Source: Botryllus schlosseri
Lineage: Eukaryota
Assembly (NCBI GenBank): GCA_051294905.1
Contig: CM119372.1
Coordinates: 19,718,001 to 19,782,000 of the forward strand
Reading direction: 5' to 3'
Length of the DNA: 64,000 nt
In this document: piece after piece, positions 25,905 to 49,379 of the stretch
Position numbering within the stretch: the first letter of the stretch is position 1
Layout: each line of letters starts with the position of its first letter
Translations under genes and position numbers: made by a program
Notes under the pieces: model-generated
What the model saw: the letters and a program-made list of their open reading frames with translations, nothing else
The model's database searches: none
Told to the model about the DNA's origin: nothing

Positions 25905-26756
25905 CTTGAAGTTTACATTCTCCATTTGGAAGGGATGGCTATACGGCACTGCAGGCTACGGTAAAAAGATAAACTCGAGAAGAGGATGATTTCTCCTCAT
26001 GTTCTCGTCATTGATGACTTACATTGATTCTTTAAATTTGGCACCATATTCAATTACAACCGTAGCCTATTGATGTTTGTAACTGAAATTATCATGATCA
26101 TTTGAAAACACCGTGCACGTATAGTTTCAAGTTATTTCCTACGTGTAGGAAAGGTCGTCTGTACTTGTGTCGTTAGCAAAGCACCTCGTGTTACTTTCGG
26201 AGATTTATCGCCATTTCATAATCAAATTAGGCTTTGTTCTTCCAAATGATCAGTTGGAAGTTTCGTCATATTTCAGTGATTTTACATCTCAGGCGTGGAA
26301 TGCAAGGTATTGTGAGGTTTAGTATGCCGGTAGATGACAGAATATGCCAAAGCACTATTTCTGTGCTGTGTTGTGCTTTATGAGAGGGTGGTGGGGTGCG
26401 ATTATTTCATTACCCATACAAATATATACATTTGTTTTCGATATTTGGTGAATTTTTGGTAGGAATGAAGTTGGCGACCTGCTGTGTACCCCGCCTTCTC
26501 ACTGATATATCGTGACTCTCTGATGCAATCTTGAGGATCAGCGGTGAACAAATCGGGGAGATATTGATTTTCTCTGAAAAAGTTAGGCATATCGGGTCAT
26601 AAGACACCCCAGACTGCGATGTCATGATGGTGGTACCGGTTATGTATAGGCCTAGGCCAGCATCATTACTCGTTTTCACGGCCCAAGGGACCTTGTTCTA
26701 GTCTTCGGAAGGTATATAAATCTGAAATAGGAGAATATATTGTCCAAATTGGGAAA

Positions 26757-27067
26757 GAGTAGAGTAGCGTAATGGTTAAGCGTCCGGCTTCTTGATCGTT
26801 AGGTCGCGGGTTCGATTCCCGGCCGGGTCAGACCAAAGACCTGATTAGAAACACTGGTATCCATGGCTTCCCTGCTTGGCGCTCATGCATTACTGGGATA
26901 GCGTGGAGGGGTGGTGCATGACTTAGAAAGCCGTAAAGGCTATATGTGCACTTCCTTGTCCAGCGGCATATGCACATCATGCACATGCGCAGATCGTGTG
27001 TATGTGTATCATGACTCGGTGCATATGCCGCAAAAACATCAAGGACAAAAATAAACTACGTCCTTCC
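26757..27067 (+). mobile_element. tRNA-derived SINE, family 1 (Meta-domain-like core), nested in the Buster element
   Basis: Pol III A box TAGCGTAATGG and B box GGTTCGATTCC, followed by GGGTCAGACCAAAGAC...GGTATCCATGGCTTCCCTGCTTGGCGCTCA. A second copy is at 37755-38605. Confidence 0.8.
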
Positions 27068-27210
27068 GTAATCATATTTTGGGTTGATTTCCGTTTTCGA
27101 AGACCCGCCGGTCCGCCGACTATTTTTGGAAATTTTACCGGTCCGCGAGGTGAAAAAGGTTGAGAACCACTGGCCTATAGCAATATAGCGTTATGCGCGG
27201 CCTACGATAT

Positions 27211-27224
27211 CTCCATTTTCACAG
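27211..27224 (+). promoter_or_regulatory. Candidate 3' splice acceptor (cis or trans) for the native first coding exon of copy 2
   Basis: CTCCATTTTCACAG lies 49 nt upstream of GCAATGG (ATG 27274, good Kozak context). Confidence 0.5.
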
Positions 27225-27273
27225 TTCATCCGAATGTAGGCTAAGTTTGCAAATGTCGAACTAATAATCCGCA

Positions 27274-30200
27274 ATGGAATTATCAAAAAAAAGAAGACAG
27301 CTCTGTCTAAAACCGCGTGGACCAAACAACGGATTATCACGCCTGCCAAACTTCAGACCTTCTACCATAGGCGCCGAACGCTAATTCTCCTTAGGCATGC
27401 GAGTTCGATGACGTCACAAAGGAATGACGTCATGATCCGACGGAATTGAAAATTAGGGATAATATTGCATCAATTCATGAGAGTTAAGTGCCTGCATAAA
27501 TGCCGATTATGCAATATCTTCGTGTTAACAAACTTGCGCGTATGATAGGCTTGTCAACGAGTCCGGAAGTGCTGTCAATTAACGAGTTCCTGATCGCTAG
27601 CGAACAATTAAATACGCGGCTTATCAACGCGTATTACGTAACCTCGGCGACGATTTGCGCAAGGCAAAATGTCAGAGTTGTTATGGAATGTGTTCTATAA
27701 TGGCACCGATTTCAGGTTGTTCAAACCTTTCCCGTCTTTTACAACTCAAGCCTTGACAGTTGACACACATCTTCTGATGGTTATGTTTAGGTATTAGCGG
27801 AATTCACTTACGCATGCACGGCGCACTCACAATCGCACCTGTCTGCGGACATTCGATGTTATTCAGGTCAGCGATGTCGCTCTTTAATTACAATCGCTAA
27901 CCAATAAACACCTAACGGCATTGTCACCAAGCCATCGAGAGATTGGAACTAACGCATGGTAGGCTCGAGAGATGGGAGCCAACGCATTCTCGGCTCTAGA
28001 CGTGATAGTTGGCCAGCGATGATATCTTTTGTACCAGGCCTGTTGCAGATGCGATTGTGTAGGCAAGCGATAATATCGTGCGCGCCAATGCAGATGCGAT
28101 AGTGCAGGCAGCGATGGCACCGGACCTACTGCTGATGTGATTTCATGCTCTAGGCTTGTCGGAGACGCGATAAAGCAGGCTGAAAACGCTGATTGCCAAT
28201 CCAAAACGCTGATTGCCGAGCGCACGGCAATCAATGACACAATTTCGCGATCATCTCAGCGGGAGATCACGTGATTCACGTCGCGTTACATTGTGCACAG
28301 ACAAATCTCGTTAATTGGCAACGCGCTTTTAGCTAATTGGCCGCGCGCAACGGGTTACCTCACTCACATGAGCGGTAGCAGGTAATGTCGTAAACGGAAA
28401 TACATTACGATTCGTTCTAAATAACACAATCGGGGTTTATGCCGATTCATGCCAAACCGAATTCTAGGCATGCCGCATGCCTAAAAAAATGTCTAGGCAT
28501 GCCTGGCATGCCTTGCATGCCCAGGTTCGGCGCCTATGCCTTCTACCGAGAATTGTCTGTCAGTGTCGACCTATTTACGATTGAAATGTACCAGGCTGAA
28601 CTATGGCTTCATTATGGTGTTGGCAACATGCTGTGTTTCTATGGCGGTCGGTGTTCACGTAACTGAACTCCAAAGAGTAAACGACGCATCAAGACATTTA
28701 GTTCAACACGTGTATCAAAGTTACAAGAAACCAGTGACGTATCTAAATCAGATCGCAGTGAACTTGGATACTAACGACCACCAACTTGCCGCAGCGCTTG
28801 CATCAAAATACGGATTTATCTTCAAGGGCCAAGTGAGTATTTCACTACGTCAAGAACTTCGTAAATAATGAAAGGAAGGATTACGACCGGATATTGGAAA
28901 GTCAATGCCATCCAATACATTATGACAAAATGTCTCGCTCAAAGCGGCGCTTTGAAGATTCATTTCGTAATTATGATGCGCGACGCTATAATACCACATC
29001 TTCAAATTAAGCGGCTTTACATCTTTCGAGGCGCGACCGTCATTTAATAGCAATATTATATCCGAATAGATCAAACCCTTGAACGGGTGGTATCTGTTTG
29101 AGGACAAGCGGATAACCAAACGCTCGATCAGTGCGGCTCATCTACCCCTTTCAATGACCAGACTCGAAAAAGACCGACATGTAAGGGCGTAAGAATGGAA
29201 ATTACCCAGTGCTAAAAACATTGATACTATTTTAATTCAGGTTATGGTGGCAGAAAGGTTAAAGACGTTGAAACGAGTTCGTAGAAATCGCCGCCCTACT
29301 CTGTCGCGAGACCTCACTGGGCCATTAGGAAATCCGAACGACCCCGCTTGGAGATGGATGTGGTACATGGTTTGTTGCGTGATAATTCTTATAATGCCTA
29401 CGCTTTCGAAAAATAAGGACGTTGTAACATTCAGATTCTGCGTAGATTTGCGCGATCAACTATGTATGATTTTTGTATTGAAGACTATGTATGTTCGCGA
29501 TGACTGTGGTAGCGCTTGGATAAATGCATCATTACTAGGGCCATTTAAAGTCATTAAAGTCATATTTTTTTCTATGCATCAGTAAGTCGTGAAATCAATT
29601 TTAACGCGAAAACCACGCCCCTATGGGGTATATTAAGAAAGTTATTAAGTCATATAAAGTCATCTTTTCCTGGTTAGGTCATATTTGAGTTACAAAGTCA
29701 TATTGTTATATACTTTAAATAAAAAGTGGTGAATAGAAAGCGGTGAAACAATTAAGCACTAAGAAAGTGAGGCAATTTCTCATTGAACGAAGGCAAGCTG
29801 TAAGGTTAGCCTACATAACACTACAGTCACAGACCTATGAGGTCACACATTGCATTATGAGGTCACACGTTGCATTGTGTTGCTACACAATCTGTTTTAC
29901 TTCTGTGCACTGAAGTAGGACGTCATTTGAAGTTCAGTCAGTGGGTAAGCAGGCTAAAAAACTCTACCTTGGTCTAGTTATATACAAATGCATTTGGATT
30001 TGAATAAAATAGTATTTATGGTGGGCACCACTATAATAAATAATTGAAGAATTGATCACAGAAATATGCCTCCACTACAACAATATTTCAAACTTGATAC
30101 GGAAAATGGACCATCAGAGAGGCTAATGCTGATCTAAATCCCTTGATTTCAGAAAAGATCCGCTTGAGCTCAAAAATTACATTAAGAAACGATGTGAAAC

Positions 30201-33200
30201 AAATTATGGAGCTACAAAGGCAAGACATTTCACCAGCGCTGAATGCAAAACTGCAGAAGTGTCAGCCCACATCAGCGTCTGTGGAGCGCTCATTTTCCTT
30301 ACTAAAGTCATTTTTACGTCCAAATTGTCACTTTAAAGACTTCAATATTCCATACTACATGAAACTGTACTACAACAGTGGTTTAAAATAAAAATGGATG
30401 CGTATTACTGTTATGTTGTGTATGTTTTACTCGTCAGTTCCATGAGTGACGTTGGTTACATGTAAAAATGCACTATTTTCACATAAAGTCCTATAAAGTC
30501 ATAATTTCCATAAAATAAAGTCATATAATTGATTTTTTACTGTCATATAAAAATGGCCCTAATCATTACTAATGAATCATTCCAAAATATGATTTTGAGT
30601 GTTTAAATTCCGTGAACTGCCACTTGGTAATATTAATTCCTATACGCTTCCTAGAAATATGAACGTTCTAAACTTTAAAATTCTGCGTAAATTTGACCGA
30701 ATCACTATGCGTGATTTTATGTGTATTTAGGGCTGTGCAGTGTGCAGTGTGCATGTTCCGTCTTCACGGATAACATAAGCTCTCGGGTAACACGAGAGCA
30801 ATACGCTCATCAGCGTTGAACTATGCGCGGTTTCATGGCCATATATTAAAATTCTAAATACATTTCGCGCGATCAACTACGCATGATTTTATGTGTATGT
30901 ATGTTCGCGACAGCTCTGATAGTAATTGGCTAACGACATCATCACTAATTAATTGATATAAAATGCTATTTCGAGTGCAGGGAGATCGCGGTTTTGATTT
31001 CCGAGGTCTCCACATTTTACGACTTATTTTCAGAGCGCAGCACAACTGAACGATCATTGAATATACACTATAGCAATACCCTACTCAACTCAAGAGGACG
31101 CACTGTCGTCCGGAGTCCCAACACAATCAGTGTATACGGCCTTCAGCTTTGAGGATTTCCTGTGGTGATCTTCATCTATTCGAACAGCACTGCGGGGGAG
31201 TGAACGACAGCGAATGCCCTACCAGCATGAAAATATCCGACGCTTGGCGGGTGGGATATTCCGGCAAGGGTGTCGTAGTCACTATTCTAGACGATGGGAT
31301 CGAGAAGAGCCATCCCGACTTGCAACATAATTTCGTGAGAATAGGACCGGCGACACTACCTCGCCGCTTCCATCGACGAATGGCTTTTTTCACCGTTTCC
31401 AGGATCCTCGCGCATCCCGTGACATCAACGGCGACGACGATGACCCGACTCCGCGATACGACATCTCCAATGAGAACAATCACGGCACGAGATGTGCCGG
31501 CGTGGTTGCTGCCGTGTCTGGAAATAACATCTGCAGTGTTGGGACTGCTTACGAGGCAAAGATAGGCGGTAAATACTCTTGTTCTTTCACGGTACATTTG
31601 TTGGCGACAGACACTTTAAGTAACCAAACTCTAATCAGGCATTCGCATGCTTGATGGTGAAGTCACCGATGCCGTCGAAGCCACCTCACTGGGTTATCAC
31701 CGTGAATACATCGATGTATATAGCGCATCTTGGGGGCCGGAGGATGACGGAAAAACCGTTGAAGGTCATTAGTCTGAATCAACTGAGATTTCCACGATTT
31801 ACCGTCGTCGGTTACTGACACAGGCCCAGGGGAGCTTGCCAAAGCAGCCTTCGAAGAAGGGGCAAGACTAGGGCGTGGCGGTAAAGGATCAATATTTGTA
31901 TGGGCCTCCGGTAATGGTGGTCTTCACAACGACTCGTGTGCATGCGATGGCTATATCAACAGTATATATACAATCGCAATCAGCAGGTAAATATTTCGTT
32001 GGGGGCGACCCTTAAATTACATTCTTTTATCACGATATGTCAGCGTTCCATTAAGACCGGTATCTTTGAAGATAGCAAACATATTTTCCGTCACGTCTTG
32101 CACGTTAGTTTTCATCCGGTAGTCATTCATACGCCACGAGTTCCATTTAAACTAAAGCGCGATTTTCGCCGACATCAGTAATATTGCAATCGAAGATCAA
32201 ATTTGTCACATTCAAGCAGCTGTAAGTGACATACCTATAATAATTTCAACCAGTCTCGTTTTCGACACATTGAACTAACTGGTCAGAAGTAGGGGGCTCG
32301 GCAAAACGAGTACCTGAGTTAAAATTGGTCACCACTTTGAGTCGACTCCAGAATTACCCGCTTTTTTGCTATACTTCTGTGGTGTTGACTAAAACAAGTT
32401 CATCGCCCTGAGTCGACTCCGTAATGACCCGCTCGAAAGTTCGCATTACCTATTTCGCGTCATTTATGCCGATTTTCACTTGACTATGCCCATTAGCATA
32501 GCATGACTTTTTATTTAGTCAACACTACAGAAGTACTGAAAAAGGTGGGTTATCCGGGAGTCGAGGCGAAGTGATGACCATTTTCTTTAGTCAACACAAG
32601 ATTTCCAGTAAATATAATTAAAATGGTTGAAACTAGTTCAAAATGTGGGTGGCATGTTCAACGAAAGCCATGCGCAGCAGCATGCTCCTACGCCACTAAC
32701 TGTAAAAGCTGCAAAGGAGGAAGAATTGCCGAAATTGAGGGCATTTAGGCGACATCGGAGGACATTTTAAATTTTCCGAAATGGACAAATCCTCATAAAG
32801 GAGGGCGTATGGTAACATTAAGTTGTAGGCTTCAAATTGAGTCGAGCATTCATATCACTCATTGTGGCGTGGTACGAGTGTGAACGACGTGTAAAGTTCA
32901 AATACGTATGACGCATTAAAGATCATTTGGTAATTTTTTTACTTTACCTATTTCATTGCACTTTGTGATAATGCTGTGGATTAATCATATCTTCAAACAA
33001 ATGAATTTCCACTATTATGCGTAGCATTGTACCGCTTGCTTCGTATGCTATAATACACGATGTTTCCGGATTTCCACGACAGACAAATAGTAGAATTCCC
33101 GAATACTCGAGTCCTCGAGTACTCAAACTCGAATCGGTGTTTCCATAACCTGATAGATTCGATAAATAATTTGACCGGTATAACACAGGCAATGAAGCGC

Positions 33201-36200
33201 ACCTGATTGCGATTCCAAAGGGTGGAATTAGAATCGGCGAATTTCTGTTGCACCAGCGGTCTAAGAAAAATATTCATTACTGCACATTAGGGAGATACCA
33301 TATCACAGTAGGCCGATGCTCGATTTTGCAAATCCAGTCATGATGCATGATGACCTGTTTATGGATAGCATTAACGATAATGCGTGAAAGCAAAGCAGTT
33401 ACTGTTCAAATCAGCTATGTCTATGCCGTACATGGTGATTAGTGATTATGTCGCGTAAATATTTCTTGAATACAAGTGTATTGAATACACCAAATATATT
33501 TCTTGAAAACAAAAATAGCGGAACGTTCGGGCATTCTATCCCGTGCCAACAAGTGAACCAAATATTATCATTTTGGATGTTATTTTTAAACATAGGACGT
33601 TGTGAATAGAAATAACGAGAAAATAATAAAAATATTCTTTGAACAAGGGTCTTGTTTTTGAACATTTCTGTTCTGATGCATTGTCATTCTCAACAAATCC
33701 CTACATACGTCATCGTTGTTTTTCGGAATTCCAGTGCACATCTCGCTAGCTACGATGCTTTCCTTATAGGGACGTCAACGTCATAAGTTCTTGGAAATCA
33801 ACATGCATATATACGGACCCGTGGAAATGTAAAGGGTAAATTATAACACGTGCTCTTGTTTCAAAGTGTTTCCCAGAATGGGCATCGGCCTTGGTATTTG
33901 GAAAGCTGTGCGTCGACCTTAGCAACGACCTACAGCAGTGGCGAAACAAACGAAGGGAAGATTGTAAGTTGTTTTCGTGTACTGCACGACTGGTTATTCG
34001 TGATGATTGAAGGCTTGACAGATTGTTATGGAATCTTAATTGCCGACGTCTGCCTGGGTTTCTCATCTCGCAACGTTATGTGCTTTCAGGAACAAACCTT
34101 TGCGTGACAAATAACATTGCCACACAGTGCTTTCAATATGTCCAATGTCCATTGTAATTACGTCCAGGTAACCACTGATCTCCGCGGGCAATGTACATAT
34201 CAACATACCGGCACTTCCGCGTCAGCACCCATGGCTGCAGGAGTAATAGCGCTGATGCTAGAAGCCAATGAGCATTTGACGTGGCGCGATGTGCAGCATA
34301 TTATCGTGAGAACATCAAATCCAAATGGCCTGCAAGCTGATGACTGGGTCAGCAACGGCGCTGGTTTCAACGTATCTCATGTTTTTGGATTTGGCCTGAT
34401 TGACGCATTGCTGCTAACTCACGTGTCGCGTACCTGGACAACTGTACCGGAACAGACACGGTGCGAAAATCCAATTGATTCCACCAGAAGGTATAGCACC
34501 AGCATACGCTGATACCGCGTGATATTTAACCTTACCTTCGCGTGGGGTACGTTTCTTCACAGAACAATTACAACTAGTTTGGGAGTCGAGTTGAACAGTC
34601 AAGGATGTCATGGAACTGCGAACGAAGTCAACCACTTGGAACATGTCATTCTTAGAATGACATTGCGTCACCTATCGAGGGGTTCACTACGGATATTCCT
34701 GAGGTCTCCACATGGCACAGTTTCGAATATTCTCGAGAGAAGGTGAGCTCGTATAGTGCGTAGATATCAGATGCTGATATGGTGTACTCTATAGCCTGCC
34801 GGGCCATGTATTTTCGAAAGTTGTTTTTCTGTTGTCTCATAAATATGTCATATAGGTTATAAATACGCTATAAATATGCTATAAAAATGTTATAAATATA
34901 TTGCATATGTTTCCTTGTATATGTACTTATTAGAAATCACCAAAAAAATTAAGCACTCCGACTGACGCAAAGAGCAATCGCCTGTATAATGAATAGGGGC
35001 TATTTTTTGACCTAAACGGTAGATTATGCCTAAAAATGAAAATTTGGCCATTTTTGACATTAAAAAAGTTAATTTTGACAAAATGTCGCCGAGTGTCTGT
35101 AAATTTGGCGTTTTGGTGGTTTCTGATTCGCCGTAATATTTTACCATGAACTAGAGTCGGTCGAAGTTATCAGCGTTGCTACTCAAGTAGTACAAGTAAC
35201 GCCTCACATTTCTACTCAGTTACAACTAGAAGTAGTCATTTCTTCATTCGTGAGACGCTCACGATCCCGACTTGGTATTTCTTAATAGGGCCCATCATTT
35301 TCTGCAGTTCGCATTTGGACTGTAGGGCTTAGATTACAGTATTATATCAAAAACGAAAAATCTAAGTCACCCTGAATCGCAAAAAGCGCGAATAAAATTT
35401 TCAAGTCATAAATCTATCGACGATTTGGGAACCAATTCGTTATTTGTAACTGCATATTGACGGTCGCCAACACACGCCGCATAACTGTTGTTTAACGGCT
35501 GCATGCGACCGTACGTCTGCAGATTGGCCACCGCTGGCCTGTGGAAATGATGATGAACAAGGCTGCAACTTGTTTGAAATGCTAAATACTAATCAGGACT
35601 CGAGGTTACCGGACCACCTTCTAGCACAGTGGTGCTCAAACTCGACCCCCTAAGACAGCCTGTCCACGCCCATGCAATGATGTAGCCTACACTGCGCTAT
35701 TTAAAAGCACCTCGCAGAAAGTAACAATTTAATATTTATGAGCTGTCACGATGCATGGTTTCCTCAAAATTCATTGTAGACAGATATCGCAAGCGGAGCA
35801 TATTTCAAGTCCATCCTGTTGTACTCCAAAAGGAGCCAATTAGTCCATTACTCACGTTTAAATGATGGGGGAAACATTTGCATATGATATCACAAAAGGA
35901 ATGTAAGTTACAAGCTACGTACAGCTGATAGGAAAATTGTATGATATTGCACACCCGGCCAATATGTTCTAAAGCAGGGGTGGACAATGATTTTCCTCCG
36001 CGGGCCAAATGAGAAAAATAAATACGTTGGCGGGCCGCGTGAAAATTTTTAGCTATACTCTCCAGCGTATTTTAATTTAATTTCTAAATTACATTCTTAA
36101 TAAATGCTGCTCAGTGAATGTGTTGATATAAGGTAATGAGAAATTGACGGTTAATAAAATAGATACAGCCTACTTGCTGTCATGATTCGAAACAATGTTA

Positions 36201-39200
36201 AACATGATACATTTTAGCTATCTTAAAACCGATATCCACGTTCTTCTATTATGACTCTAAAACAGTGGTTCTCAAACTTTTTTTGGCACGCCTCCCTTTA
36301 TGATCGCGCGCTCTTATCATGATATCACTAAATAATAAAAAGTGCAACCAGAATGCTAGCAATCCCAACGGACAGTTTGATAGCACGGAAGATTATGGCT
36401 GTTGATGAGAGAATTGTGAAATATCTAAAGTCGGACAATACACAAAGCAACAACTATAAGCGGGGGGTATATCGCGCGGAGCATGAAATGTTTTTTAAAT
36501 AAACTTCGGCTTCGAGCCACCTTTCTGATGCTTTCACGTATCCCAGTTTGAGAACCACAGCACTGAAATGTATATGCAATAGTACAAAGCTTTACGTGGC
36601 GAGATAGCGCAGTGGTATAATCCGCGGGTGCAACACCAATGGGTGCGGGTTCGAGTCCGACCGAGGTCGACTTCCGAATTCCGATATCTAAGTGTTGGAG
36701 GTTTACCTAGGCTCCTCCTCTCCACCTCATCCGCGTCAGCGGTGTCTTACAAAAGCCTAGAGGTGGGCCGTGCTATAAGTCGGCAGTTACGGAAAATACA
36801 AAAAGAATATCGGCCTGGTGTAAATGACCATAGTAGTCGAGAAACACCATGAATACCAACAAAACAAAGCTTTATTTTCTTGGTCACTGCCTTCCGAGCA
36901 GTGTACATGTACAGGTACACGTACAGCTGAAATAGCCTTTATGTTGAGCGAAGCTTGCAGTTTTTCTGAACTTCGCCCTCCCTTGACCGAGTGCTTCGTG
37001 TTTTTGTCATTTTCATTAAAATCCTTAAGCTCGGCGACATGCTCGGCAAAAACTGAATGGATGGGTTTATCCCTGATTCCAGAATAACGTATTTAGTATT
37101 CTAAACGTAAACCTTCTTTGAATTTCCGCTTTCGTCTTTCTATTTTGAGCATGCCCGTTAATCCTTTATGGATGATAGATATGATGAGTCATAGTATAAT
37201 CACAAGCACTGATTGACTTGTTTTACGAATTAGGGATTTGGAAATATATCACGTAACAAAACACATACCGTATAATGCGTAATTTGACAGTGGCAACAAG
37301 GAAGGTTTGAACTAAACTATTCGGAAAGAATGATTTCTTGTGGCTTCAATTGCTACTCATACTTTGCCGCACTACCTTTATTTTGAATCTGGATTACGCA
37401 TGTCAGGTACGTAGGCAGCGTAATCCTGGCATATTAATGAACGGGCTTCAAAGTAAACGAATTTCCTGTTCATTTGATACAGCCTATGGTTTTAGTCATT
37501 TTCAAAAAGCAATTTTTATGTTTTGAATTTCAAGCAACCTTTTGCGGGCCGCACAGAATAGCTTCTTGGGCCGCATGTGGCCCGCGGGCCGCACTTTGCC
37601 CATGTCTGTTCTAAAGCATAAACTTGTCTGTTTATTGTGATAGCCTTAACTAGTCATCGGTCCATTTTAATGCGGATCTGGTACACCCCTGAACACCCCA
37701 TCTGAGTGGTACATTTTTTCAAAATTTTGGTACACGACAAGATAGCGTAATGCCGACAAGATAGCGTAATGGTGAAGCGTCCGGCTTCTTGATCGGTAGG
37801 TCGTGGGTTTGATCCCCGGCCGGGTCAGACCAAAGACCTGATTAGTAACACTTGTATCCATGACTTCCCTGCTTGGCGCTCATGCATTACTGGGATAGCA
37901 TGGAGGGGTGGTGCATGACTTAGAAAGCCCTAAAGGCTATATCTGCACTTCCTTGTCCAGCGGCATATGCACATCATGCACTCATGATATGCATATGCAC
38001 AGATCGTGTGTATGTGTATCGTGAGTAGGGCTGGGCACAATGATGCGAGTATTCGAATCTGAATCGAGTATTAATTTTGATGATTCGAGTCGAGTAGTAA
38101 AATACGATTTTTTTGAGTACTGAAATTAAACGCTCCTCGCCTCTGAACGTTAATTCATTAACGAGATTTATAGTATCGATACTAATTTTCACTGTTGAAG
38201 CCTTGAAACCTTGATTGGCCCTACCGTAGCATACGAACATATAGTGCAAAGCTACGAACGTTGCTGGAAATAGCACATTTCCGAAGTCATGATCATCCCA
38301 CAACGTTGTCGCCAAGTGCAATGAAATCGGTATGGTCGAAAAACTACCAAAGTATCTTTAATGTGATCGATACCAGGCATTTTATTATTTGTGGTCGCAT
38401 AAAAGGTACACATTTGAACTTTTACATATTAAATTCTGTCATGACGTCATAATGAGTGATACTCGATGACTCGACTCGACTCGAAGCATATTACGTGATT
38501 CGGAATCGAATCACTCAGATACTCGATTCTGCCCAGCACTAATCATGAGTCGGTGTATATGCCGCAAAAATAAACATCAAGGAAAAAAATAAACTACGTC
38601 CTTTCCTTGCCTAGGCCTAGGGTGCACGATACACCCGGTTGAAGAGCTCTGGTCTACATCACAATTTTTCATCGTGCGATTGATATAAGATCCAATGTCC
38701 ACGCAGTCTTGCTTCAGTTAGGGTATTGCGATACATTGAACTTAACGCCATGGGAACCTAATTGTTTCCTTTGACCGCATATGATTCACAATGAGCAGAC
38801 AATTGAGCCGTCTGCAACGACAGGCCTATGAAGAAGGCTACAAGATGTCAAATGTCAAATGATCAGTTCACCGATAGCGCAAACATCTACGATACAGAGA
38901 AATGCCGGTTTCAAAAAATGTGGACGTTAAAGCAATTTTGACAATTTTTTGACCTAACGATACAATTTTGACAAAATGTTGACTTCTGGTGCAACGTCAA
39001 AAAATTGCCCTATTCCGAATGGATCGGCGTGGCTGTGGACGACTTCTCTATGAAAACAACCGCGTGTGTTACCTTGTTAAATCACACCGGTGAAGTTGCA
39101 ATTAAAGGCTTACTTGTGAGGTAGCCATAGAATTCCGGAGTTGTTCGATTTCAAATTACACTGGTCAACACATATATTTTAAAATCAGGCAAAGTAAGAG

Positions 39201-42200
39201 TGGTTTTGGGGGTTTTGAAGAGCACTTATTCAGAATATGATATTCGTTTTTTCAATTTATCTCTTGTTTTGGAGATAACCCATTGGGAGGTTTTGACCAG
39301 AATCATCCATTTTCGCTGTAATGGCTAGATAGAAGATCGGCTCTGTCATACTATATAAAGTTTAGAAATTCAATCTATTTGTCATGTTTACACCCAGAAG
39401 ACTCTTTTAAATCAAAATACATAAATAAACTCCAGTAATGTATATAAGATTTACCAAGATCAGGGGTTGCCAACCGTTTTGCCATTCACGGCCGCATTTC
39501 GACTACTCACGTAGTCTGGCCGCATTCCAGGGCATCAGTGTTGGGATGACTCGAGTCATGACACTAATAATGTGATATTCGTAATCAGCAACCTCGAAAA
39601 CCCCAGAAACGGCTCTCAGATGTTCTGCCATTTTTTTAAAAAAATTTTGTTGACCAGTGTTATTAAGTATTATTATAAATAAATTCAATCTGACAGGACG
39701 GTAGCGGTTGATACGGTCAATTAAACTAAATTGGAAATTATTTATCATTATTATTAGGCAGTGTAGTAGGGGTGTCATGTCAAGGCAATTTTGCTTTATG
39801 TTGTTATATACGTATATAGGAAGGCAGTATCATAACAATATTGACTATCGACACTCGAAACTTGGTAGTTACGTAGGCCTGTCTCCAATTACCTGGACCA
39901 GGCGAACAATGATCATGATCACTAAGGCAAGATTTTGAAAGTTTTGCTACTTTTTTTTACACCTTCTTACAGCTTTCTATATACTCAGAATTTATGTACT
40001 ATGATGTTTCAAGCTGTTTGGAGGGATTTTATAGTGCAAATTTTCATGGCAAGTTTTACTTCAATTTTTATCAAATATTGCGTGAAAATGAAAGGGAAGG
40101 ATGTAAAAACATGCTCTAATCTATTTATAGTATGGTTCTATTATCTTTGATTTGCATAACAATGAGCTATATATGATGGGTTAGGTGCATCTGAATGTTA
40201 TCTATGACACAATGGCTTGCAAGCGAGAAGTTCAACCACCCCTGCCAAGCACGACCGTGCCAGTACAATATGTATATAGATCGCTATATTAATTCTGTCG
40301 TTTAAATTTGAGATAGTTTCCCATTTCACGTAGCCCAGGCGAGACCGTCGAAAATTACACTTTCACTGGGTCACCCTATTCAGGCTATTGATTTTGTTAA
40401 AGTCGCTAAGAGTGGGTTTTTCTGCAATGCTTTACGTCAACTTTGCAGACCTAGGGGGTGGGTGGGTTATTTTACTTGTTTTAGGGGGAGAGGGCTATCG
40501 CTATGCTGTTTGGCTTTTTTGGGGAAAATTATTCCCTCATCGCGTAATTTTCTTGCTGTGTACCGAAAAAAGGTGGATTTTGGCGGTTTCGCCCGTCGCC
40601 AGACCGCCAGTTGAATGCCAAAGTAACAAATCTGACAGCAAGGCACGAACTAGGTTATACAACGGAACCTTTTATTTCGAGTATTTCATGCCCTTATAAT
40701 TCAACAAAAATTATAAATGTAACTTTTTGCTGAAACTTTTGTTAAAATTAAGTGCAACATTCTCGCAATTTTAGTGCAACAAAAACTTGCCCCAATGATC
40801 GCTCGCAGTCGCTAATATATCAATGTTGCAACTTTTTAATGCTGTAAGCTTTCACATTTTATAGTGTATGACTGGTGACTGCATCATATGTGATGTGCCC
40901 ATAACAATGAACATGAATAATTGTAATTGTTCCAATTGCAAAGCTTCATGCTTCCTGTGTGGACTTGAATCGGGAGAAATATCGTAGTCTACGATGATGA
41001 CGATGTACTTTGATCAAGATATATGTTCATTGTTCAGTATTGAATATATCGCCCTATTCTCATTTTGGGGGAGCCCTCGGTGATGCCAATCGTACCCTGC
41101 ACCTTTACAGATCTGGCGACAAGTCTAGGGAGGGGTTCAAAAATTGGGATTTCATGACCACCCATCACTGGGGCGAGAGCCCACTAGGACTTTGGCGCTT
41201 GAAAATCGAAGATGACCCCTACCGACTGAAATATCGGCATCCGTAAGTGCACCTTCTTTTCACCCTACTCGCAATCGCAAAATCTCACTTCCCTTTGCAG
41301 TGGCCGGGATCTGTCCGCCAGTAATTTCCTTGTGAGTTGGCAGCTGATATTTTACGGTACGCTAGACCACCCGCAGCCCAACTTTTCGCTCGACGCTTGC
41401 GAAGGTGAGAGAAAAATTTTCATTTCGGTATTTACACGTTGCAGATTTTACTTTGCGTTCATATAGCTTACCCGCAAAATCAGTGTCATGCCGAGTGCGA
41501 CGGGTGCTGCGGTGCCACCGCTATGGAATGTAAATCCTGTAAACACGCCTCGACAGCATCGGGCGTGTGCATCGCATCGTGCCCGTCGGATTATTTTCTG
41601 AATGGGACAACAACGATATGTCAAGTAATAGATTGAAAGTGTATTGGGTTACAATGTTTTAGTAAATTGTTGCCTTTTTTGTCCCGATTCGTGTTAAGAC
41701 GCGCGAGTTCGCTGATATTATTGAAGGGCGATAACTAAGGCGAAACGCTGTGTAATCGCCACAATGTGAATTTAAATAAGTTGGAATGAAAAATTAATTT
41801 GTCGGGACGATTATGTTCTCTTTCTCATTTACGATACTTGCGAAACAGTACTATAGGATTTTGAAGTGAAATTTCGAATATTAATACGAATTCGAATTGG
41901 TGCCGGATTGTGCATTCTGATCCCTTCAGGATTGTGGTGCGAAACTGAAATCCGTAACAGTTACTGTACGTAATTTGAAAGTATCAAACATCCTTCGTTT
42001 TTTTGAAGTAACACATATGCTGAAGATATTTAAGCAAAAAGGTCTATAGTCTAGATCAGTGCTTTTCAACCTGTGTGACGGTTCGCACTGGTGCGAATGA
42101 AAAAAATGCAGTGCGAATGACGAGGGTGGTGCGAATGGTGCGAATGAAAAATCCGGATTATAGTGCGAATGAAAATCGTGAATAATTGTTAATTTTTCTG

Positions 42201-45200
42201 ACGTGGAATAATTCAAATACACGTAATAGGAAATTCAAGGGCAGTGTAACTGTTGTAGTTGAGACGTAATTGTAAAAACATGTTTAACTTGACGCACCAC
42301 TAATCGTAGCTCTCAGAAGCCGTAGTGAATTAATATTTTCGCACTATAATTATTACGTAATCAAAAGCCTGGTTTGGAAGCTGGTGTTGTAGCAGACATA
42401 CAGTATATCATCCCGTCTGAGCCTATGTCACAGGCTGTAAAAATGACGTCAAAATGACTTTCTGCTTTCTTTTGCTAAACAATCGTCATATTTTCGTAAT
42501 AACTGTTCGATTAGCGCGATGCACGAGGATAGTAGTAAATACCATCATTACAGACTCACATTTGCATGTTACTGTAACGCAAATTTTTACCCCTTCAGGG
42601 GTTATTAAAGTATGGACCACATGGGTATAATTTTGCGTCGACGCGGTGCGAGAGCTATCTGTTAATAGGTATGTAATATTTTTGCAAAAATCCGGCGATA
42701 TTTTTTACATATCCAAGGTCACTGTGTTGGCTACTGTAGTCAATAAACGAGACACGCTCAAAATATGGCTTGATCATGAGCATCAGCCGACGTTTGGTTT
42801 GAATTCATGATAAGATTTGTCCGAATGTTTTTTTCTGGAAAGCATGGATGAAGACTGTTGGGATGAACTATAGTGTAGAGGTGTGCAAGGAGAGAGTTCA
42901 GGCCTATGAGACTCATTCATTCCGAGGCCAACCCCTTCTGCGTCGGGGCACATGAAGACGTAAAGTTTTGGCTAACCGACCGCTGATAAAATGCGGTCCC
43001 TTCGCAAAAAAATGACCGTCACTGGATGGCCAAACCTTTCGATATAGATATATTCCGTTGTCGGCACGGAATAGTCCCGTTCTTGCAATCTAAGTAGACA
43101 GTAGTACGACTGTTACACGCAGAGGAATTTACTTCACCCTAATTTGAAATCACGAGCGTCAGACACATTTTATAGAGCTGTGTTGGGTAGAATTGTGGTG
43201 TGCGCGTTCTGTATGTCATACATGTCCGTAAAATCGTAGCACACTACTGTAATACTATAGAATGTAAACGTTTACATTCTATAGTAATACTAAAAATGAA
43301 TTCCTTTTCATGGGTGAGGCTCGGGTCGCGAGATGCCACAAACATTCAGATTTTGGTGGTAGTCTAAAAAGCTGCTTCAAGGTTAATACAACTGTCATGA
43401 ATTTTCAAGTTAGATTTAGCTAAATAGCCGAACAAACAGTATCGTGACTTTATTTGCTCTTCTCATATATTCGCGAGACAGAAATTGGGAAATCGAAAAA
43501 AAAAAACAGAACACAAGTTGGAGCAACGTATCGTAAGGTAGCGAGCTCTAATGTGCCTACTCTCCTTGATGTTACTGCACCTTACTTACCAATACATCAG
43601 GCATAAGCCTGAACACAAGCATGTCTATTTTCACCCTATCGACAAACTGGACCCTCCGGGACCTTTGTGTCATCTCCCCAAAACGATTTCTGCCAGCAAG
43701 CGTTTTTCACTCGCGGAAAATAGCTGTGTTTTGGATAGGAGTGCAGAACAGTTCTTAAGACCAGGCCATCCAAGCACCATGGTAGGGGTTATTGTACAAA
43801 AGCCAACAACTTGCCTGACCGACAAGCGTTTTAGTGAAATGGTTGAAATCAAAACGAGGGAAAAGAGTTGCCCTATTACTGAGACACTTAATGGCCTAAA
43901 AGCTATGCTAGCCAATTTGTTGCACATCTGAAGAGAATATTCTTACGTATCTTCATCTTCTTTTTGTATAACAATTTTCGGTTGGCTTGTGCGAAGGAAA
44001 TTTATTTTCCAAAAAAAGTGCGAATGAAGCTCAAAAGGGTCGAAAAGCACTGGTCTAGATAGCGTAACGGTTGGCTGAATTCGCATAATTTTACGGTAGG
44101 CCTAATCGTTCACAAAATTAAGAACTGTTGCCTCGTTATGGCACCACGTTTTTAGCTAACCATGATCATGTTCAATGTTCATACATGCGTCAAAGCTGGA
44201 TAGGCTAGATATACCGCGACTAACTCCGTAATTACTGTGTTGTGGGTATTAATCATACCCGCAATATCGTCAACTTCGTCTTCAGTACAGCACCGATGAG
44301 TAATTGCGCGGTTCAAAAAGCATGATCACTGTGCAATGTGCATGTGCAGTTCACAAAACTGGACTTATGTGAATATGGCTTATGTGAGCTGAACAATTTA
44401 ACTAATCAGGTACTGGACGAATATATAAGCGACAACAAAGCCTAAAAATGTCATCTTGCTGCACATGTCGATTTGGAGACGCGTACGGTGCAAAACACCG
44501 TCTCTTCCCTGAATTATAAGAGCTAAATTCTCGATTAAATCGTAAATTAAATCGTAGCGCGAAATTGGACAGTGTGTTATTGTTAGGGTTGTGATTAAAT
44601 CAAAAATCAATTTAAAACAAACATGTTCTATTCTTCTGACTGTCTTGCTAGCGCGCCTAGCATGGCTGTTTTTGACTCTGTCGATCAAGATGTTCTGCAG
44701 AGCTACCAGGAATGCCAACTGGTCAATACCATTTATTACACTCTGAAGAAAAACTACGCCAGCGAGCAAGGCGCTAGGATGGTCTGCATGGATGGCGCCA
44801 CAAAGAACGCTGGCGAAGTCATTGATAAAAAGACCCTGTTATTCAACCGATCGAGACAAGCTGTTATCACCACGGAGTTGATCGAAATTATATCGGGAAT
44901 GACAGCTCTTTAATATCGATATCTAAACTGTTGTCGACATGTTTCGGAGAAGGCCCTTTTGCTGTTTTTTCCAAGCCATGACGTCACGTATATTCAATTG
45001 TCACGTCATAATGGATCGATATTCACAATTAAAATATAGGGTAAATATAGCTCCTTTGACGAAATAGTCTTTCCACCCGGACCAAAAATATCTTTAACCA
45101 GGACTACATCGTCTTGTAGCATTTTTACGGTCGGCGTTCATCATCATCAGAACATTCGTTCCGTACCAATGATCTATATTAACGTACTGTAGCTATCAAA

Positions 45201-48200
45201 CCGACTATTTCGAGGGTCCCAACCATCCCATACCCTATATCTCGGCTATATCGGGTGGTAATCGTCGTCCGTATAGGCTCGCACAACATGTTTTTGGAAA
45301 GTATTTACACAAATATGGCATAATTATACAACTTGAAACGTACTACGTTTAAAAAAAAACATTGTTTAAAACACCGTGTGAAACATGTTTTAAACAAAGT
45401 CTTTTAAACAACCATTTGTTTTGAATGCAACCCTGGTTATTGTGTATGCCTACGAATTGTCGCGGTTCGAGCTAGTCAATGCGATGTTCGGACCCCCTGG
45501 TGTTGCATGAAAGAAGGCAATTAGTGATTGGATGATCGCTTTCCAGTTTGTAACTATCAGTTTTGTGTATTCATTCATGTGTGCTTGGTACACTCGTATT
45601 CCTGAATTGTCACACAATGTCAATTATGAGCGTGTAGTTTAACTTGTTACTGACACGGTGCATTGCGTACTTGTACAGTTCACGGCGTCGATTCGTTTGA
45701 AGAAATACCTTTATATTCCAGTATAGTCATGGCTGAAACAGCACTTCGTCAACCCCCACCCCAAAGCGTTGTTCTCGGGGCCCCCATAGGGTGATGAACC
45801 AAACTTCTGAGGGCATCGCCCCACATACACCCCATTGGGATCTACGTTATCACCACTATTTATGACCGAATTTTGTTATACTCAACAGTCAGCAGTCGAC
45901 GAATTTTTGTGGACGAATCGCCAAACGCGCGAAGTATTTGTCCTATGCGGTTCAGAAGGCCAGCACAGGAAGATTTGGCTCCAGCCATTTATGCGCCTTT
46001 AGAAATTTAGACATAGCCTATGCATATCTGTCAACATAAGAGTAGTTCTTTTCGGTCAAGGTTTTCTCGCTCCTGATGTTTTGGCACACTTCTCGGTGGT
46101 TCTATGCTGGCGTAAACTTCATATGTCATGATGCGTCGTGGCGTGATATTGGCCGACGCCGAAATGCCTATTTCTACAAACCATGCGTATTTTTTATTGG
46201 GGGAAGGGTACCCAACAAAGACATCAAGACACCAAAAAATGCTCTATAATTTATGTTCATTCACAAAATAATTTTGGTCCCACTTCGAACTTGCCTCCTC
46301 CCGAATTGGAGCGTTGGGGTACGGCAGTTACGGTTCTGCGTAAAATTGATCGGCACCGAACGGACTGATAACGAGGACACCAATATAGAATTTCAAACCG
46401 TTGGGTAGTTGGTGGAAATCGGATTTCTAATGATAAGGTCGCGACATGCGCTCATATGGCTCTTGGTGCTGTTACATTTGAATTATCGTACCAGATTGAA
46501 TTCAACTGTTTGGCTTGATATTACCGAGTGCAGTGCCGGTAGGCCTACCGCAATTTGTATACTACTGACTCACTAAAAAGCGTAATCGTATCTGACGGAC
46601 ATATATATATATACATATGTATAAACCAGCCCTGCTCAGAGACATGCAAGGAATGTTCGGGACCTTACGCACAGAACTGCACTGCTTGCAACATCGGTTT
46701 CTCACCCGTTGACGGGCGCTGCATCCAGCAATGCTCCAACGACTCGTTTCTGGACAACGGTGAAAGAACTGTGTTCTATCGAAGCCCCGAACCATCCATT
46801 GATATTGCGATTCTAATTCAGTGACACAAAGTTGCATGCCGTGCCACCAGAGCTGCAAGACGTGCTCGGGCAGTCGTGAAAGCTGCACATCATGCAAGGC
46901 CGGATTCCAGTGAGATTTGTCGCAGGTTTTTGGTGAGACTTGGCCACCGCAATATTCTTTTCTTCGCAGACAAGTGGGTAATGCGTGTCACGCGGCATGT
47001 CCGCAAGGGACATACATCGCGTCGTATCAAACTGGCTGCGCCTTTTGCCATGATCATTGCCTGGAATGCATAGGACCCCTCGAGGGGCAGTGTACGAGAT
47101 GTGAAAACGGGATGATCCTGCATACGATGCGATGTGTAAGAACTTGCCCAACTCGTTCCTATCACGATAGGGATCGACAAACATGTCGCAGGTGAGTTGC
47201 TAGTATTTGCAATTCCCCCGCTTTACCGGAAATTACGACGACGATATAATCTCCTCAACCGTATGCCTACGTTCTAATTTCCCGTACATGTACAGTACAC
47301 GTTTATAAAGCGATATGCAACACTGCGTCAGTGGTATCATCAGTGTTATACTGACGCCATAAAGCGAAAGCGCAGTGTTACCTAGTTTCTCGTGTTATGC
47401 TTTTTTGATGGTGAGTGGGAGTGGTTTAACTGTCGACTCTCTTGGCACTAGGTCTATAACGGGAGTGCAAAGTTTATTAAAATGTCTATTCTATAACAAA
47501 GAAAAGGAACTAGATCAGGGGTGTCAAACAGACGGCCCGCGGGTCGCATCCTGCTCACCATACGATTTCATCGGGCCCGCGAAGTAGATTGAGAAATGCT
47601 TGTATCAAATAGTCCCCCAAGACAGCAAATGTCGATTGTGTTCATAGGTCATATTATAGCCATTCGGCGGCAGCGTTCCGATTTCAATCATGTCACCAAT
47701 AGGGACTAGTCGATGACTTTGACACCAGATTCAAAGAACGCAAAAAAGTCAACACTAAGTTTTAAGGGTAATTGGACCTAAAAGTAGTTAGAGAAAACGT
47801 CAATGCGAAACCATTATATAAGCAGGTTACATGCATAATATAATAGTTACACAAAGAATACAATTCCAATAGGCCTATCAGTGGCCTCCAGTGAAATTCG
47901 AATTACATTTATCAATAATGAACAAAAATTTGCGTTTACAGTTAAATATTTTGTATTCCTCACAACTAGTGCTGGGCACAATGATTCGAGTACTCGAATC
48001 TGAATTGAGTATTAATTTTAATGATTCGAGTCGAGTAGTGAAAGACGATTTTTTCGAGTACTGACATTACATGCTCCTCGCCAATAAAAGGGAATTTATC
48101 GACGAGAATTATAGTTTTGATAGTATTTTCCAATGTGGAAGGCTTAGAACCCTGATTAGCCGCATCGAAGCATACGAAACACAGTACAAATGCTACCCAC

Positions 48201-49379
48201 GTTGCGGGAAATAACGCATTTCCGAAGTCATAATCATCCCATAACCTTGTCACGAAGTACAATGAAATCGGCGTGGTCGAAAAAATACTAAAGTCTCTTT
48301 AATTTGTTGGATACCAGGCATTATATTCTTTGTTGTGGCATAAAAGGTACATATTTGAACTTTGACATATTTCATTATGTCATGGCGTCATAATGAGTGA
48401 TACTCGAATACTCGACTCGACAGATTAATCTCAAGAATACCAAATCACACGTGTTATGATTTTACTTTTCCGTATGCATCAGTCGGAAAGTCGATTCCAC
48501 TCTTCTCCATCCACAGGTGTCACAGGACTTGCAAAACTTGCGATGGCCCGTCTGCAACCGACTGTCTGAGCTGTGACGGTAAGAGTAATTTTATTCCAAT
48601 CATCGAGCTTGTATCGACTAATATTATGAATACATCCACTAATAATACTTTGAGCGTGTCTGCGGCGCATATTTGGAGAAGTATCAACTAATGATAAAAT
48701 TCCAGACTAATATATGGACTATGTACGTTCAAAGCACGATGTTGCTATCCCTTTAACATGCATTTGTCTTCTTTCGTTTCCATGCTGCCTGCCCATTCGA
48801 TACTGCGCTGCTCGTCAACCTACTGGTACTGTCTCTTGCATCGGCATATTTCTTCTGGGCGTCGCAATGCGGAACTTGCTAACTTTGGTGCTTTTTCGGC
48901 GTACATTTGAATCTATCACTGCTCTGTCGTTCACACTCGGACACGACGTAGGGTACAAGGATCGTTTCGATAAAAATACGTGCTTGATATTTGTGGGACT
49001 TGACATGTGTCGCCACCAAGAGATCAGCATTCTGTGCTGTCAGACTTGTATGCTCTACGAGTCTGGAGAGTTGTACGTATCCGCGGGCCTACCTTCGTTG
49101 AGTGAATTGAATTCGACGAATGAATTGAATTCGACGAGTATCTTGGACGACGACTACCCTGACGACTATTACGAGCATGCCTACGCGGACGCAGATAGTA
49201 AATACGGCGACGCTACAGAAGGCAACGTCGACAACGAACTTCAGCTCCCAGAAAGAACCGGCGGTTCCGATCCGCAAACGCCTATGATTGTCGACAGTGG
49301 TATTGGTGTCGAACAAAGTCAAGGTTCAGCAGCGATAACAGGTAGGGATGCGGAGCAAGCGGCTGACGGCGATGCGTGA
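27274..49379 (+). CDS. PCSK5: Proprotein convertase PC5/PACE4-like, copy 2; first coding exon split by a transposon. Exons 27274-27365 [TE 27366-28538] 28536/28539-28832, 29070-29180, 29241-29369, 31188-31334, 31403-31568, 31639-31764, 31824-31986, 33867-33963, 34168-34490, 34563-34742, 41111-41242, 41301-41404, 41467-41624, 46630-46759, 46822-46909, 46970-47191, 48517-48578, 48952-49379
   Basis: Hydrophobic signal-like segment ([16 protein letters not shown]) and prodomain (YLNQIAV...[25 protein letters not shown]). Primary cleavage site KRVRR followed by [11 protein letters not shown]. Same catalytic, P, Cys-rich and PLAC exons as copy 1, with no stop or frameshift from 28536 onward. Confidence 0.88.
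27366..28538. mobile_element. Non-autonomous DNA transposon (hAT-like) inserted in coding exon 1 of convertase copy 2
   Basis: 14-bp TIR CATAGGCGCCGAAC / GTTCGGCGCCTATG, perfect 8-bp TSD CCTTCTAC (27358-27365, 28539-28546), and subterminal GGCATGC repeats. Confidence 0.93.
29536..30561 (+). mobile_element. Internally deleted hAT element
   Basis: TIR TAGGGCCATTT / AAATGGCCCTA; perfect TSD ATCATTAC; hATC remnant [15 protein letters not shown] (ORF 30143-30391). Confidence 0.9.
35975..37608. mobile_element. Buster-type non-autonomous element with nested MITE (36263-36560) and SINE
   Basis: Termini CAGGGGTGGACAA / TTGCCCATGTCTG; perfect TSD TTCTAAAG; GCGGGCCGC subterminal motifs. Confidence 0.85.
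36596..36865 (+). mobile_element. tRNA-derived SINE, family 2
   Basis: A box TAGCGCAGTGG and B box GGTTCGAGTCC followed by a non-tRNA body. An inverted copy is at 57545-57802. Confidence 0.75.
37755..38605 (+). mobile_element. tRNA-derived SINE family 1, interrupted by a MITE
   Basis: Close similarity to 26757-27067; the head GACAAGATAGCGTAATG is locally duplicated. Confidence 0.8.
38026..38541. mobile_element. hAT-like MITE with ACTCG-rich ends
   Basis: TIR TAGGGCTGGGCA / TGCCCAGCACTA; TSD ATCGTGAG/ATCATGAG. A truncated sibling is at 47967-48420. Confidence 0.85.
39158..39660. mobile_element. Tc1/mariner-like MITE
   Basis: TIR ACACTGGTCAACA / TGTTGACCAGTGT in an AT-rich site that is empty in copy 1 (~6620). 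Confidence 0.7.
39923..40794. mobile_element. hAT-like MITE, family A
   Basis: Similar to 562-1412; TSD ATGATCAC/ATGATCGC; empty site ATGATCGC in copy 1 (~6874). Confidence 0.85.
42057..44052 (+). mobile_element. Internally deleted Buster-type hAT element
   Basis: TIR CAGTGCTTTTC / GAAAAGCACTG; perfect TSD GTCTAGAT; GTGCGAATG subterminal repeats; hATC-like remnant [18 protein letters not shown]. Confidence 0.88.
44584..45435. mobile_element. hAT-like MITE carrying a captured host gene fragment (Pack-type)
   Basis: Termini TAGGGTTG / CAACCCTG with perfect 8-bp TSD GTTATTGT (44576-44583, 45436-45443). A related sequence without the cargo lies at ~53511-53670. Confidence 0.85.
44652..44913 (+). 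pseudogene. ATP5F1C: Fragment of mitochondrial F1 ATP synthase gamma subunit (C-terminal ~86 codons plus stop)
   Basis: [20 protein letters not shown]...[46 protein letters not shown] matches the conserved gamma-subunit C-terminus. It is preceded by an acceptor-like TTCTTCTGACTGTCTTGCTAG. Confidence 0.92.
47967..48420. mobile_element. Truncated MITE (family of 38026-38541)
   Basis: The left TIR TAGTGCTGGGCACAATG is present and the right TIR is missing. Confidence 0.75.

Follow-up and report, generated by a model that had tools for sequence, protein, structure and literature searches.

A young, segregating DNA transposon insertion in coding exon 1 of a tandem proprotein convertase gene of Botryllus schlosseri

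The window analyzed here is a stretch of 64,000 nt of Botryllus schlosseri contig CM119372.1 (assembly GCA_051294905.1), read on the forward strand, and all positions refer to it. It contains the second copy of a tandem pair of genes that, judged from their domain content, encode furin/PCSK5/6-like proprotein convertases, and coding exon 1 of this copy is split in the assembly by a 1173-bp transposon with terminal inverted repeats (TIRs). This young insertion still segregates in the species, the native start codon lies upstream of it, and the remainder of the gene is intact, an arrangement that most likely corresponds to loss or weakening of function of one allele, tolerated through redundancy with the first copy. 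The features on which the argument depends are the following.

27225..27273, plus strand: 5' untranslated region (UTR) of the convertase copy 2 mRNA in the empty allele, following the acceptor ttttcacag/T at 27224/27225.
27274..27365, plus strand: first coding part of exon 1, with the native ATG and codons 1-30, ending with the left copy of the target-site duplication (TSD) CCTTCTAC.
27366..28538, plus strand: transposon of 1173 bp, non-autonomous, of the TIR DNA type, inside coding exon 1 of convertase copy 2.
27382..27384, plus strand: premature in-frame TAA inside the element, which ends the native open reading frame (ORF) of the occupied allele.
28522..28538, plus strand: right tip of the element, with CAG at 28522-28524, an 11-nt spacer and a terminal ATG at 28536-28538 in the convertase frame.
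28539..28832, plus strand: second coding part of exon 1, with the right TSD copy, the hydrophobic signal segment and the start of the S8 pro-domain; donor caa/GTGAGT at 28832.
28614..28616, plus strand: downstream in-frame ATG (Met54), which is ACG in run X6.
29070..49379, plus strand: exons 2-18 of convertase copy 2, all open, with the D/H/N/S motifs and the stop codon TGA at 49377-49379.

The TIRs of the element are complementary at 14/14 bases, with CATAGGCGCCGAAC at 27366-27379 and its exact reverse complement at 28525-28538, and the 8-bp TSD CCTTCTAC is present on both flanks (27358-27365 and 28539-28546). Translation from the ATG at 27274 ends after 36 codons at the TAA within the element, and scripted removal of the element together with one copy of CCTTCTAC leaves the frame open throughout exon 1. 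Two TGACGTCA motifs lie near the left end of the element, at 27409 and 27425, and GGCATGCC-type repeats lie near its right end. A first-pass annotation of this DNA had already described the split exon with its TIRs and TSD, the frame restored by excision, the stop at 27382-27384, the in-frame terminal ATG with its preceding CAG and the TGACGTCA motifs, and had reported that all 17 exons after exon 1 are open; our examination of the ends, the scripted excision, the translation and the complete gene model agree with it on each of these points. The longest stop-to-stop frame within the element, which lies on the minus strand, measures 123 aa. The 1173 bp contain no long ORF and gave no match to a transposase, the 123-aa frame itself having been outside the Pfam scan, and an Rfam search of the element returned no match.

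With the element and one TSD copy removed, the copy 2 gene model comprises 18 exons and 1042 codons, and it is open to the TGA at 49377-49379. Its exon translations match PF16470 (weakly, below the cut-off), PF00082, PF01483 and PF00757 (below the cut-off) in Pfam, in the order S8 pro-domain, subtilase, P domain and furin-like Cys-rich region, and the tblastn comparison with P0004 is collinear. The translation contains DDGIE, HGTRCAG, SGNGG and GTSASAP, which we take to be the motifs of the catalytic Asp, His, Asn (oxyanion) and Ser, respectively. The best named relative of a 120-aa catalytic-exon query is a Styela clava PCSK6-like protein (P0003; 82% identity), followed by other ascidian convertases. 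By these domains and matches, the host gene is a furin/PCSK5/6-like proprotein convertase, the second of a tandem pair. Protein searches with the exon 1 peptide, including a query with the element-derived residues, retrieved no database gene model and no chimeric transcript.

Paralog 1 (copy 1) lies 29 kb upstream, with its exons 1-3 just beyond the window, and it has the same exon structure as copy 2 and encodes 1048 residues. The two copies differ by a synonymous divergence (dS) of 0.219, and the ratio of nonsynonymous to synonymous divergence (dN/dS) is 0.22 over 1031 codons, indicating that both have been under purifying selection after the duplication. Codons 1-53 are weakly constrained and fast-evolving between the paralogs (dN/dS 0.61). 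Exon 17 of copy 2 carries a 48-bp in-frame deletion with respect to copy 1 (48517-48578 versus 14064-14173), which removes 16 codons of the Cys-rich repeat and two cysteines. Sequence from other individuals was available from three runs, which are three samples from three studies, one of them DNA-like (X6) and two RNA or RNA-like (X7 and X5). The junction between exon 1 and exon 2 (28832 to 29070) is backed by RNA contigs: contig 22 of X7 ends at 28832, and in X7 the last 17 letters of exon 1 stand directly before 29070, a splice that identifies this run as RNA.

The element belongs to a large family. In the searched genome (495.5 Mb, 219 contigs), the exact TIR 14-mer has 281 matches, versus none for a reversed control, and the 25-base left end has 141 matches at two or fewer mismatches, versus none in the control, so that the family numbers at least 141 copies. 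A search with the whole element gave 2466 first-look candidates, of which 40 were scored; of the 42 matches in the resulting list, 38 cover nearly the whole element, with identities of 87-100%. The same ends are found in 28/30 fetched copies, and a script identified identical 8-bp flanks in 27 of the 30 fetched loci, the window copy included, with a different sequence at each locus. The remaining three are a locus matching at 7/8 bases (L022), one that fits with two extra tip bases by eye (L003) and one that is truncated (L018). The window copy differs from its three nearest relatives at 13/1150, 14/1149 and 17/1150 positions (1.1-1.5%), against a dS of 0.22 between the two convertase paralogs. 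It has 32 private alignment columns, with one to four in the other copies, and 23 of the 32 are attributed to its 23 extra bases, which therefore leaves about nine private substitutions. We read this as the signature of a recently active family in which the window copy is probably young but not brand new.

The mobilizing partner of this family was sought among longer TIR-bounded copies. Four long elements with the same TIRs are the same element carrying nested inserts, namely an RVT_1 reverse transcriptase, a THAP/DDE_Tnp_4 gene and a YqaJ gene; a transposase of the family's own is absent from these four, and the autonomous partner was not found among them. An 8-bp TSD is common to hAT and P elements and therefore does not discriminate between them. 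The CATAG tip of the element is at odds with what we take to be the YARNG rule of hAT elements, and hAT-like ORFs upstream in the window (24149-25904) carry no TIR matching the element. P-type transposases are abundant in the genome (120 matches to PF12017), and a blastn comparison of the element with five fetched P loci gave only two 14-nt matches (E 0.59); in these five loci, no sequence similarity to the element was found beyond a CCGAAC-like tip, and the right tip of one P family, CAAGCCCCGAAC, only loosely resembles CATAGGCGCCGAAC. The superfamily is hence left as hAT or P.

Elements of both kinds were recorded in the course of these comparisons. The hAT-like ORFs are three adjacent plus-strand frames at 24149-25904, 1.4 kb upstream of the convertase start, that resemble a hAT-type transposase with a broken frame and match DUF4371 (E 3e-6, below the cut-off) and the hAT C-terminal dimerisation domain (29.5 bits, above the cut-off). 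Two P-type elements of about 7.5 kb, an extent taken from locus coordinates, are 99.7% identical to each other (L054/L055/L059/L060; G000:C8 near 17.40 Mb and C10 near 0.97 Mb). Both copies contain a frame of about 800 aa for the transposase and are flanked by an 8-bp TSD (CACTCAAC and CTAAATAC), and their ends are unlike each other (CACTGAGC... and ...GGGGCTTG), so that their TIRs are imperfect.

The empty site is found both in the paralog and in other individuals, as the first-pass annotation had anticipated. Paralog 1 has CATTGTAC once where copy 2 carries CCTTCTAC twice. One contig in each of X7, X5 and X6 joins 27357 directly to 28539, skipping 1181 bases that correspond to the element and one TSD copy. 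In X6, introns are covered at a depth of 98-157 and the joint at a depth of 89, beside values of 98-130 in its vicinity; since introns are covered, this run is DNA, and the empty site is present in it at or near full dosage. The occurrence of the empty site in three other runs indicates that the insertion is young and still segregating. The occupied allele is known from the assembly alone, four runs having been compared.

Several observations identify the ATG at 27274, and not that at 28614, as the native start codon. Two RNA contigs from two other samples (record 16 of X7 and record 1 of X5) join 27223-27357 straight to 28539 and onward; they span the ATG at 27274, which is therefore present in the mature mRNA. 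Both contigs stop matching the genome at 27223, beside the acceptor, and continue for 22 and 26 further letters, which fits a spliced leader or an upstream exon. A crude position weight matrix (PWM) trained on 34 cis acceptors, all taken from the two paralogs and not independent of one another, and compared with a background of 1674 AGs gives this native 5' acceptor (27224/27225) a score of 6.9, at the 96.7th percentile. Paralog 1 has the homologous ATG and a frame that is open, with neither indel nor stop, over the 53 codons before Met54, while indels occur just upstream of the ATG. In the X5 allele, a 3-nt insertion lies within the frame (after 27296) and a 5-nt deletion lies in the leader (at 27237). 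In the X6 allele, 28615 is T>C at 89.2 of 89.2 depth, converting the ATG at 28614 to ACG, and this codon therefore cannot be a conserved start. With the native start at 27274, the insertion falls in coding sequence, at codons 29-31.

These data bear directly on the reading in which the true start is 28614 and the element is a harmless insertion in an untranslated 5' region, a circumstance that the first-pass annotation had named as making the terminal ATG irrelevant and that the contigs, the paralog frame and the X6 allele do not bear out. The fast evolution of codons 1-53 between the paralogs would suit an untranslated leader, as would the lack of such an extension in phlebobranch and aplousobranch orthologs: few residues precede the hydrophobic segment in Ciona, Clavelina and Phallusia. 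Against this, 70-80 residues precede it in the Styela clava protein and in a related transcript-derived protein, so that stolidobranch relatives have even longer extensions; neither paralog has an indel or a stop in the upstream frame, while indels do occur ahead of the ATG, and the sole population indel within the frame is of 3 nt. Furthermore, even an untranslated insertion would place 1.17 kb with about 40 ATGs ahead of the start (40 are counted between 27225 and 28535), which would block scanning. We regard this reading as scarcely credible.

The exon is variable in other respects as well. The 49-nt leader contains two minute upstream ORFs, ATG-TAG at 27234 and ATG TCG AAC TAA at 27253 (27234-27264), which are kept in paralog 1, and the 5-nt deletion of X5 sits at the first of them. 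The signal-segment region is highly polymorphic between individuals, with differences at 28615, 28623, 28651 and 28660 that read, codon by codon, as Met54Thr, Ala57Thr, Gly66Val and Val69Ala; the last of these is found in all three other runs and is shared with paralog 1.

Taken together, the structure of the locus suggests the following course of events. A non-autonomous cut-and-paste transposon, with an 8-bp TSD and of hAT or P type, landed in codons 29-31 of exon 1 of copy 2. From the empty allele, the mRNA begins at 27225 and is translated from the ATG at 27274 into a 52-residue extension, the hydrophobic signal segment and the pro-domain. From the occupied allele, represented by the reference assembly, the frame closes after its 36 codons, and the roughly 1.15 kb of the element that come next contain numerous ATGs; given the early TAA and these ATGs, transcripts from the native 5' end should make no convertase. 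The occupied allele is thus, in our judgment, probably a null or strongly weakened one, arising from a young and segregating insertion. Its tolerance and persistence would be due to heterozygosity, the allele being unfixed, and to the intact paralog 1, which lies 29 kb upstream and can take over the function. As the ends of the family read CAT...ATG, the in-frame ATG at the tip is most simply explained by chance.

A first way in which the protein could be preserved is removal of the element from the pre-mRNA as a new intron, restoring a near-normal product. Elements that are removed from pre-mRNA by splicing are familiar from Ds and dSpm in maize and from Tc1 in C. elegans. The right tip of the element offers a strong acceptor-like site, and GT dinucleotides at 27304 and 27316 are in the right phase and would yield an open frame if joined to 28525. 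These two score -0.6 and -3.1, however, below the weakest of the 34 donors on which the donor matrix was trained (range 1.4-11.4), and all better donors come after the TAA. With a best score of -0.6 before the TAA, versus a training minimum of 1.4, no usable donor was found there, and the element is therefore not removable as an in-frame intron. Splicing of the element as an intron was rejected on this ground, and we assign it a very low probability.

A second way is self-rescue, in which a spliced leader (SL) would be added in trans at CAG/G 28524/28525, or transcription would start within the right end of the element, so that the upstream part would be discarded, the AUG at 28536 would be the first in the message and only 28 N-terminal residues would be lost. 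A number of observations speak for such a product and thereby weigh against a null allele. The CAG before the terminal ATG, noted in the first-pass annotation as acceptor-like, is indeed a strong candidate: the site at 28524/28525 scores 10.0, at the 99.5th percentile of the 1674 AGs, above both the training median of 8.5 and the native 5' acceptor, and it precedes the in-frame ATG by 11 nt. The frame from 28536 is open to the end of exon 1, and the truncated product would keep the hydrophobic segment and the Arg, Lys and Arg before it. Orthologs in Ciona, Clavelina and Phallusia have much shorter N-termini, and a truncated protein would therefore probably function if made. All downstream exons of the occupied allele are open. 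The loss of expression of this allele is itself inferred. Furthermore, the contigs of the empty allele end at the native acceptor with 22-26 extra letters, as with a spliced leader or an upstream exon, and ascidians are described as trans-splicing the SL at unpaired acceptors (PMC1488885). Rescue by transposon-borne signals also has precedents in maize Mu (bioRxiv 10.1101/2023.06.05.543741) and Chlamydomonas MRC1 (PMC5576905).

Other observations reduce the weight of this explanation. Upstream of the acceptor, the element itself contains donor-like sites, at 27866 (6.8), 28381 (6.6), 28270 (6.4) and 27670 (5.9), and the CAG acceptor may therefore be paired and cis-spliced, leaving the stop and many ATGs in the message. 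The match of the terminal ATG to the convertase frame has a prior of 1 in 3, and its context is weak, with C at -3 and C at +4. Since the insertion is young and segregating, the open downstream exons say little; by our own estimate, a private divergence of about 0.8% would introduce roughly one stop in a neutral coding sequence of 3 kb, which makes these exons weak evidence. No read or contig joining the element to exon 1 was found in the four runs examined, a weak test, as these seem to represent the empty allele or no expression of the gene; in the raw RNA run X23, of which about 6% was read, depth is zero on exon 1 and about one read on exon 3. We thus consider self-rescue of this allele unlikely.

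The first-pass annotation had extended the idea to the whole family, proposing that CAT...ATG ends might be a general device of self-rescue. In a trans-splicing form of the idea, set in an animal that adds a leader to its mRNAs, a family carrying a strong 3' splice site with an ATG 11 nt further on would, upon insertion into a 5' coding exon in the right orientation and phase, acquire the SL at its tip and have translation begin anew there, so that the host protein would be trimmed and not lost. Across 28 copies, the ORF leading outward from the terminal ATG has a median length of 14 codons versus 10 in the other frames, which gives no sign of a coding role, and the five longest of these ORFs resemble random sequence when inspected by eye; a family-wide coding role of the terminal ATG was rejected accordingly. 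Conservation of the tip is explained by transposition, as part of the TIR. The trans-splicing form of the proposal appears to us distinctly unlikely.

Partial rescue might also proceed from Met54, on transcripts that arise, by initiation or by processing, within exon 1 or the right-hand portion of the element, giving a protein that begins at the hydrophobic segment. The ATG at 28614 has a good Kozak context (A at -3, G at +4), the hydrophobic leader would be retained, and Met54 is also present in paralog 1. It is nonetheless preceded by the out-of-frame ATGs 28586 and 28604 and by the in-frame ATG 28536, it is no conserved start given the ACG of the X6 allele, and no supporting transcript was found in the runs examined. 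Initiation at Met54 is accordingly given little credence here.

A null or strongly weakened allele thus remains the interpretation that we favor. The first-pass annotation had offered, as its alternative, a recent knock-out of copy 2, and this alternative fits the data better than rescue does, with the qualification that it describes one allele and not the state of the species. As a natural polymorphism, the insertion marks recent transposon activity in an ascidian, and the occupied allele offers natural material with which to examine redundancy between the two convertase copies.

Two further repeats lie between the hAT-like frames and the gene. Directly upstream of the gene, at 26755-27066, is a tRNA-derived repeat resembling a short interspersed element (SINE), with a tRNA-like head recognized by eye (gtagcgtaatggttaag...ggttcgattcccgg) and a weak Rfam match to the tRNA clan at 26783-26823 (16.6 bits). 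Its DNA depth in X6 is 5-8 x 10^5, versus about 100 for single-copy sequence; raw RNA depth is about 2000-2800 per strand, and 751 reads have a terminal poly(A) after 27065. At 27100-27178 there is another, distinct repeat, about 75 bp long, which has 1327 first-look candidates in the genome, many of them 93-100% identical, and is missing at the homologous position upstream of paralog 1.

The components of this system have counterparts elsewhere. The 1.17-kb transposon family, apparently recently active and undescribed, resembles non-autonomous elements of the hAT and P systems in its 8-bp TSD, its short (14-bp) and perfect TIRs, its lack of coding capacity, its number of at least 141 copies and its recent activity; it is unlike them in that no autonomous partner was found for the 1173-bp family and that, beyond the tip, it shares no sequence with the five P loci. 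The host gene has the domain set of the ascidian furin/PCSK5/PCSK6 convertases, such as those of Styela clava (P0003) and Ciona (kpc-1-like, P0010), and is distinguished by its tandem duplication here (dS 0.22) and by a 52-residue, fast-evolving N-terminal extension that the Ciona, Clavelina and Phallusia orthologs lack.

Maize Mu and Chlamydomonas MRC1 have already established that a transposon can restart expression of the gene it interrupts. In maize, hcf106::Mu1 is a Mutator allele of the Mu-suppressible or outward-promoter kind, and Mu makes 9-bp duplications, where the element described here makes one of 8 bp. A Mu outward promoter is reported to drive transcripts from the element end into the gene in 20/33 alleles and is proposed to lessen the harm of insertion (bioRxiv 10.1101/2023.06.05.543741). 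Both cases involve a TIR DNA transposon within a gene, in its 5' part or its coding sequence, and transcripts proposed to start at the element end; they differ in that transcripts were observed for Mu, while none of the occupied allele was found in the runs examined here, and in that the signals proposed here are an acceptor and a terminal ATG, not a TIR promoter. The MRC1 suppressor allele of Chlamydomonas supplies a truncated IFT46 with regulatory as well as coding sequence (PMC5576905). It is comparable in that the element would supply expression signals and a start codon, the MRC1 protein being N-terminally truncated and partly functional; it is unlike our case in being an element of another kind, selected in the laboratory and demonstrated by rapid amplification of 5' cDNA ends (5'RACE) and western blot, where rescue in Botryllus is proposed from the nucleotide sequence.

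Word searches of open-access papers found no transposon-borne trans-splice acceptor rescuing a gene. In Ciona, according to one report, the leader is added at acceptors without an upstream donor (PMC1488885). Rescue by trans-splicing at the element tip, if true, would amount to the outward-promoter strategy of Mu carried out by trans-splicing, and leader-spliced mRNAs made from that tip in carriers, if they occur, would show trans-splicing buffering insertions into 5' exons.

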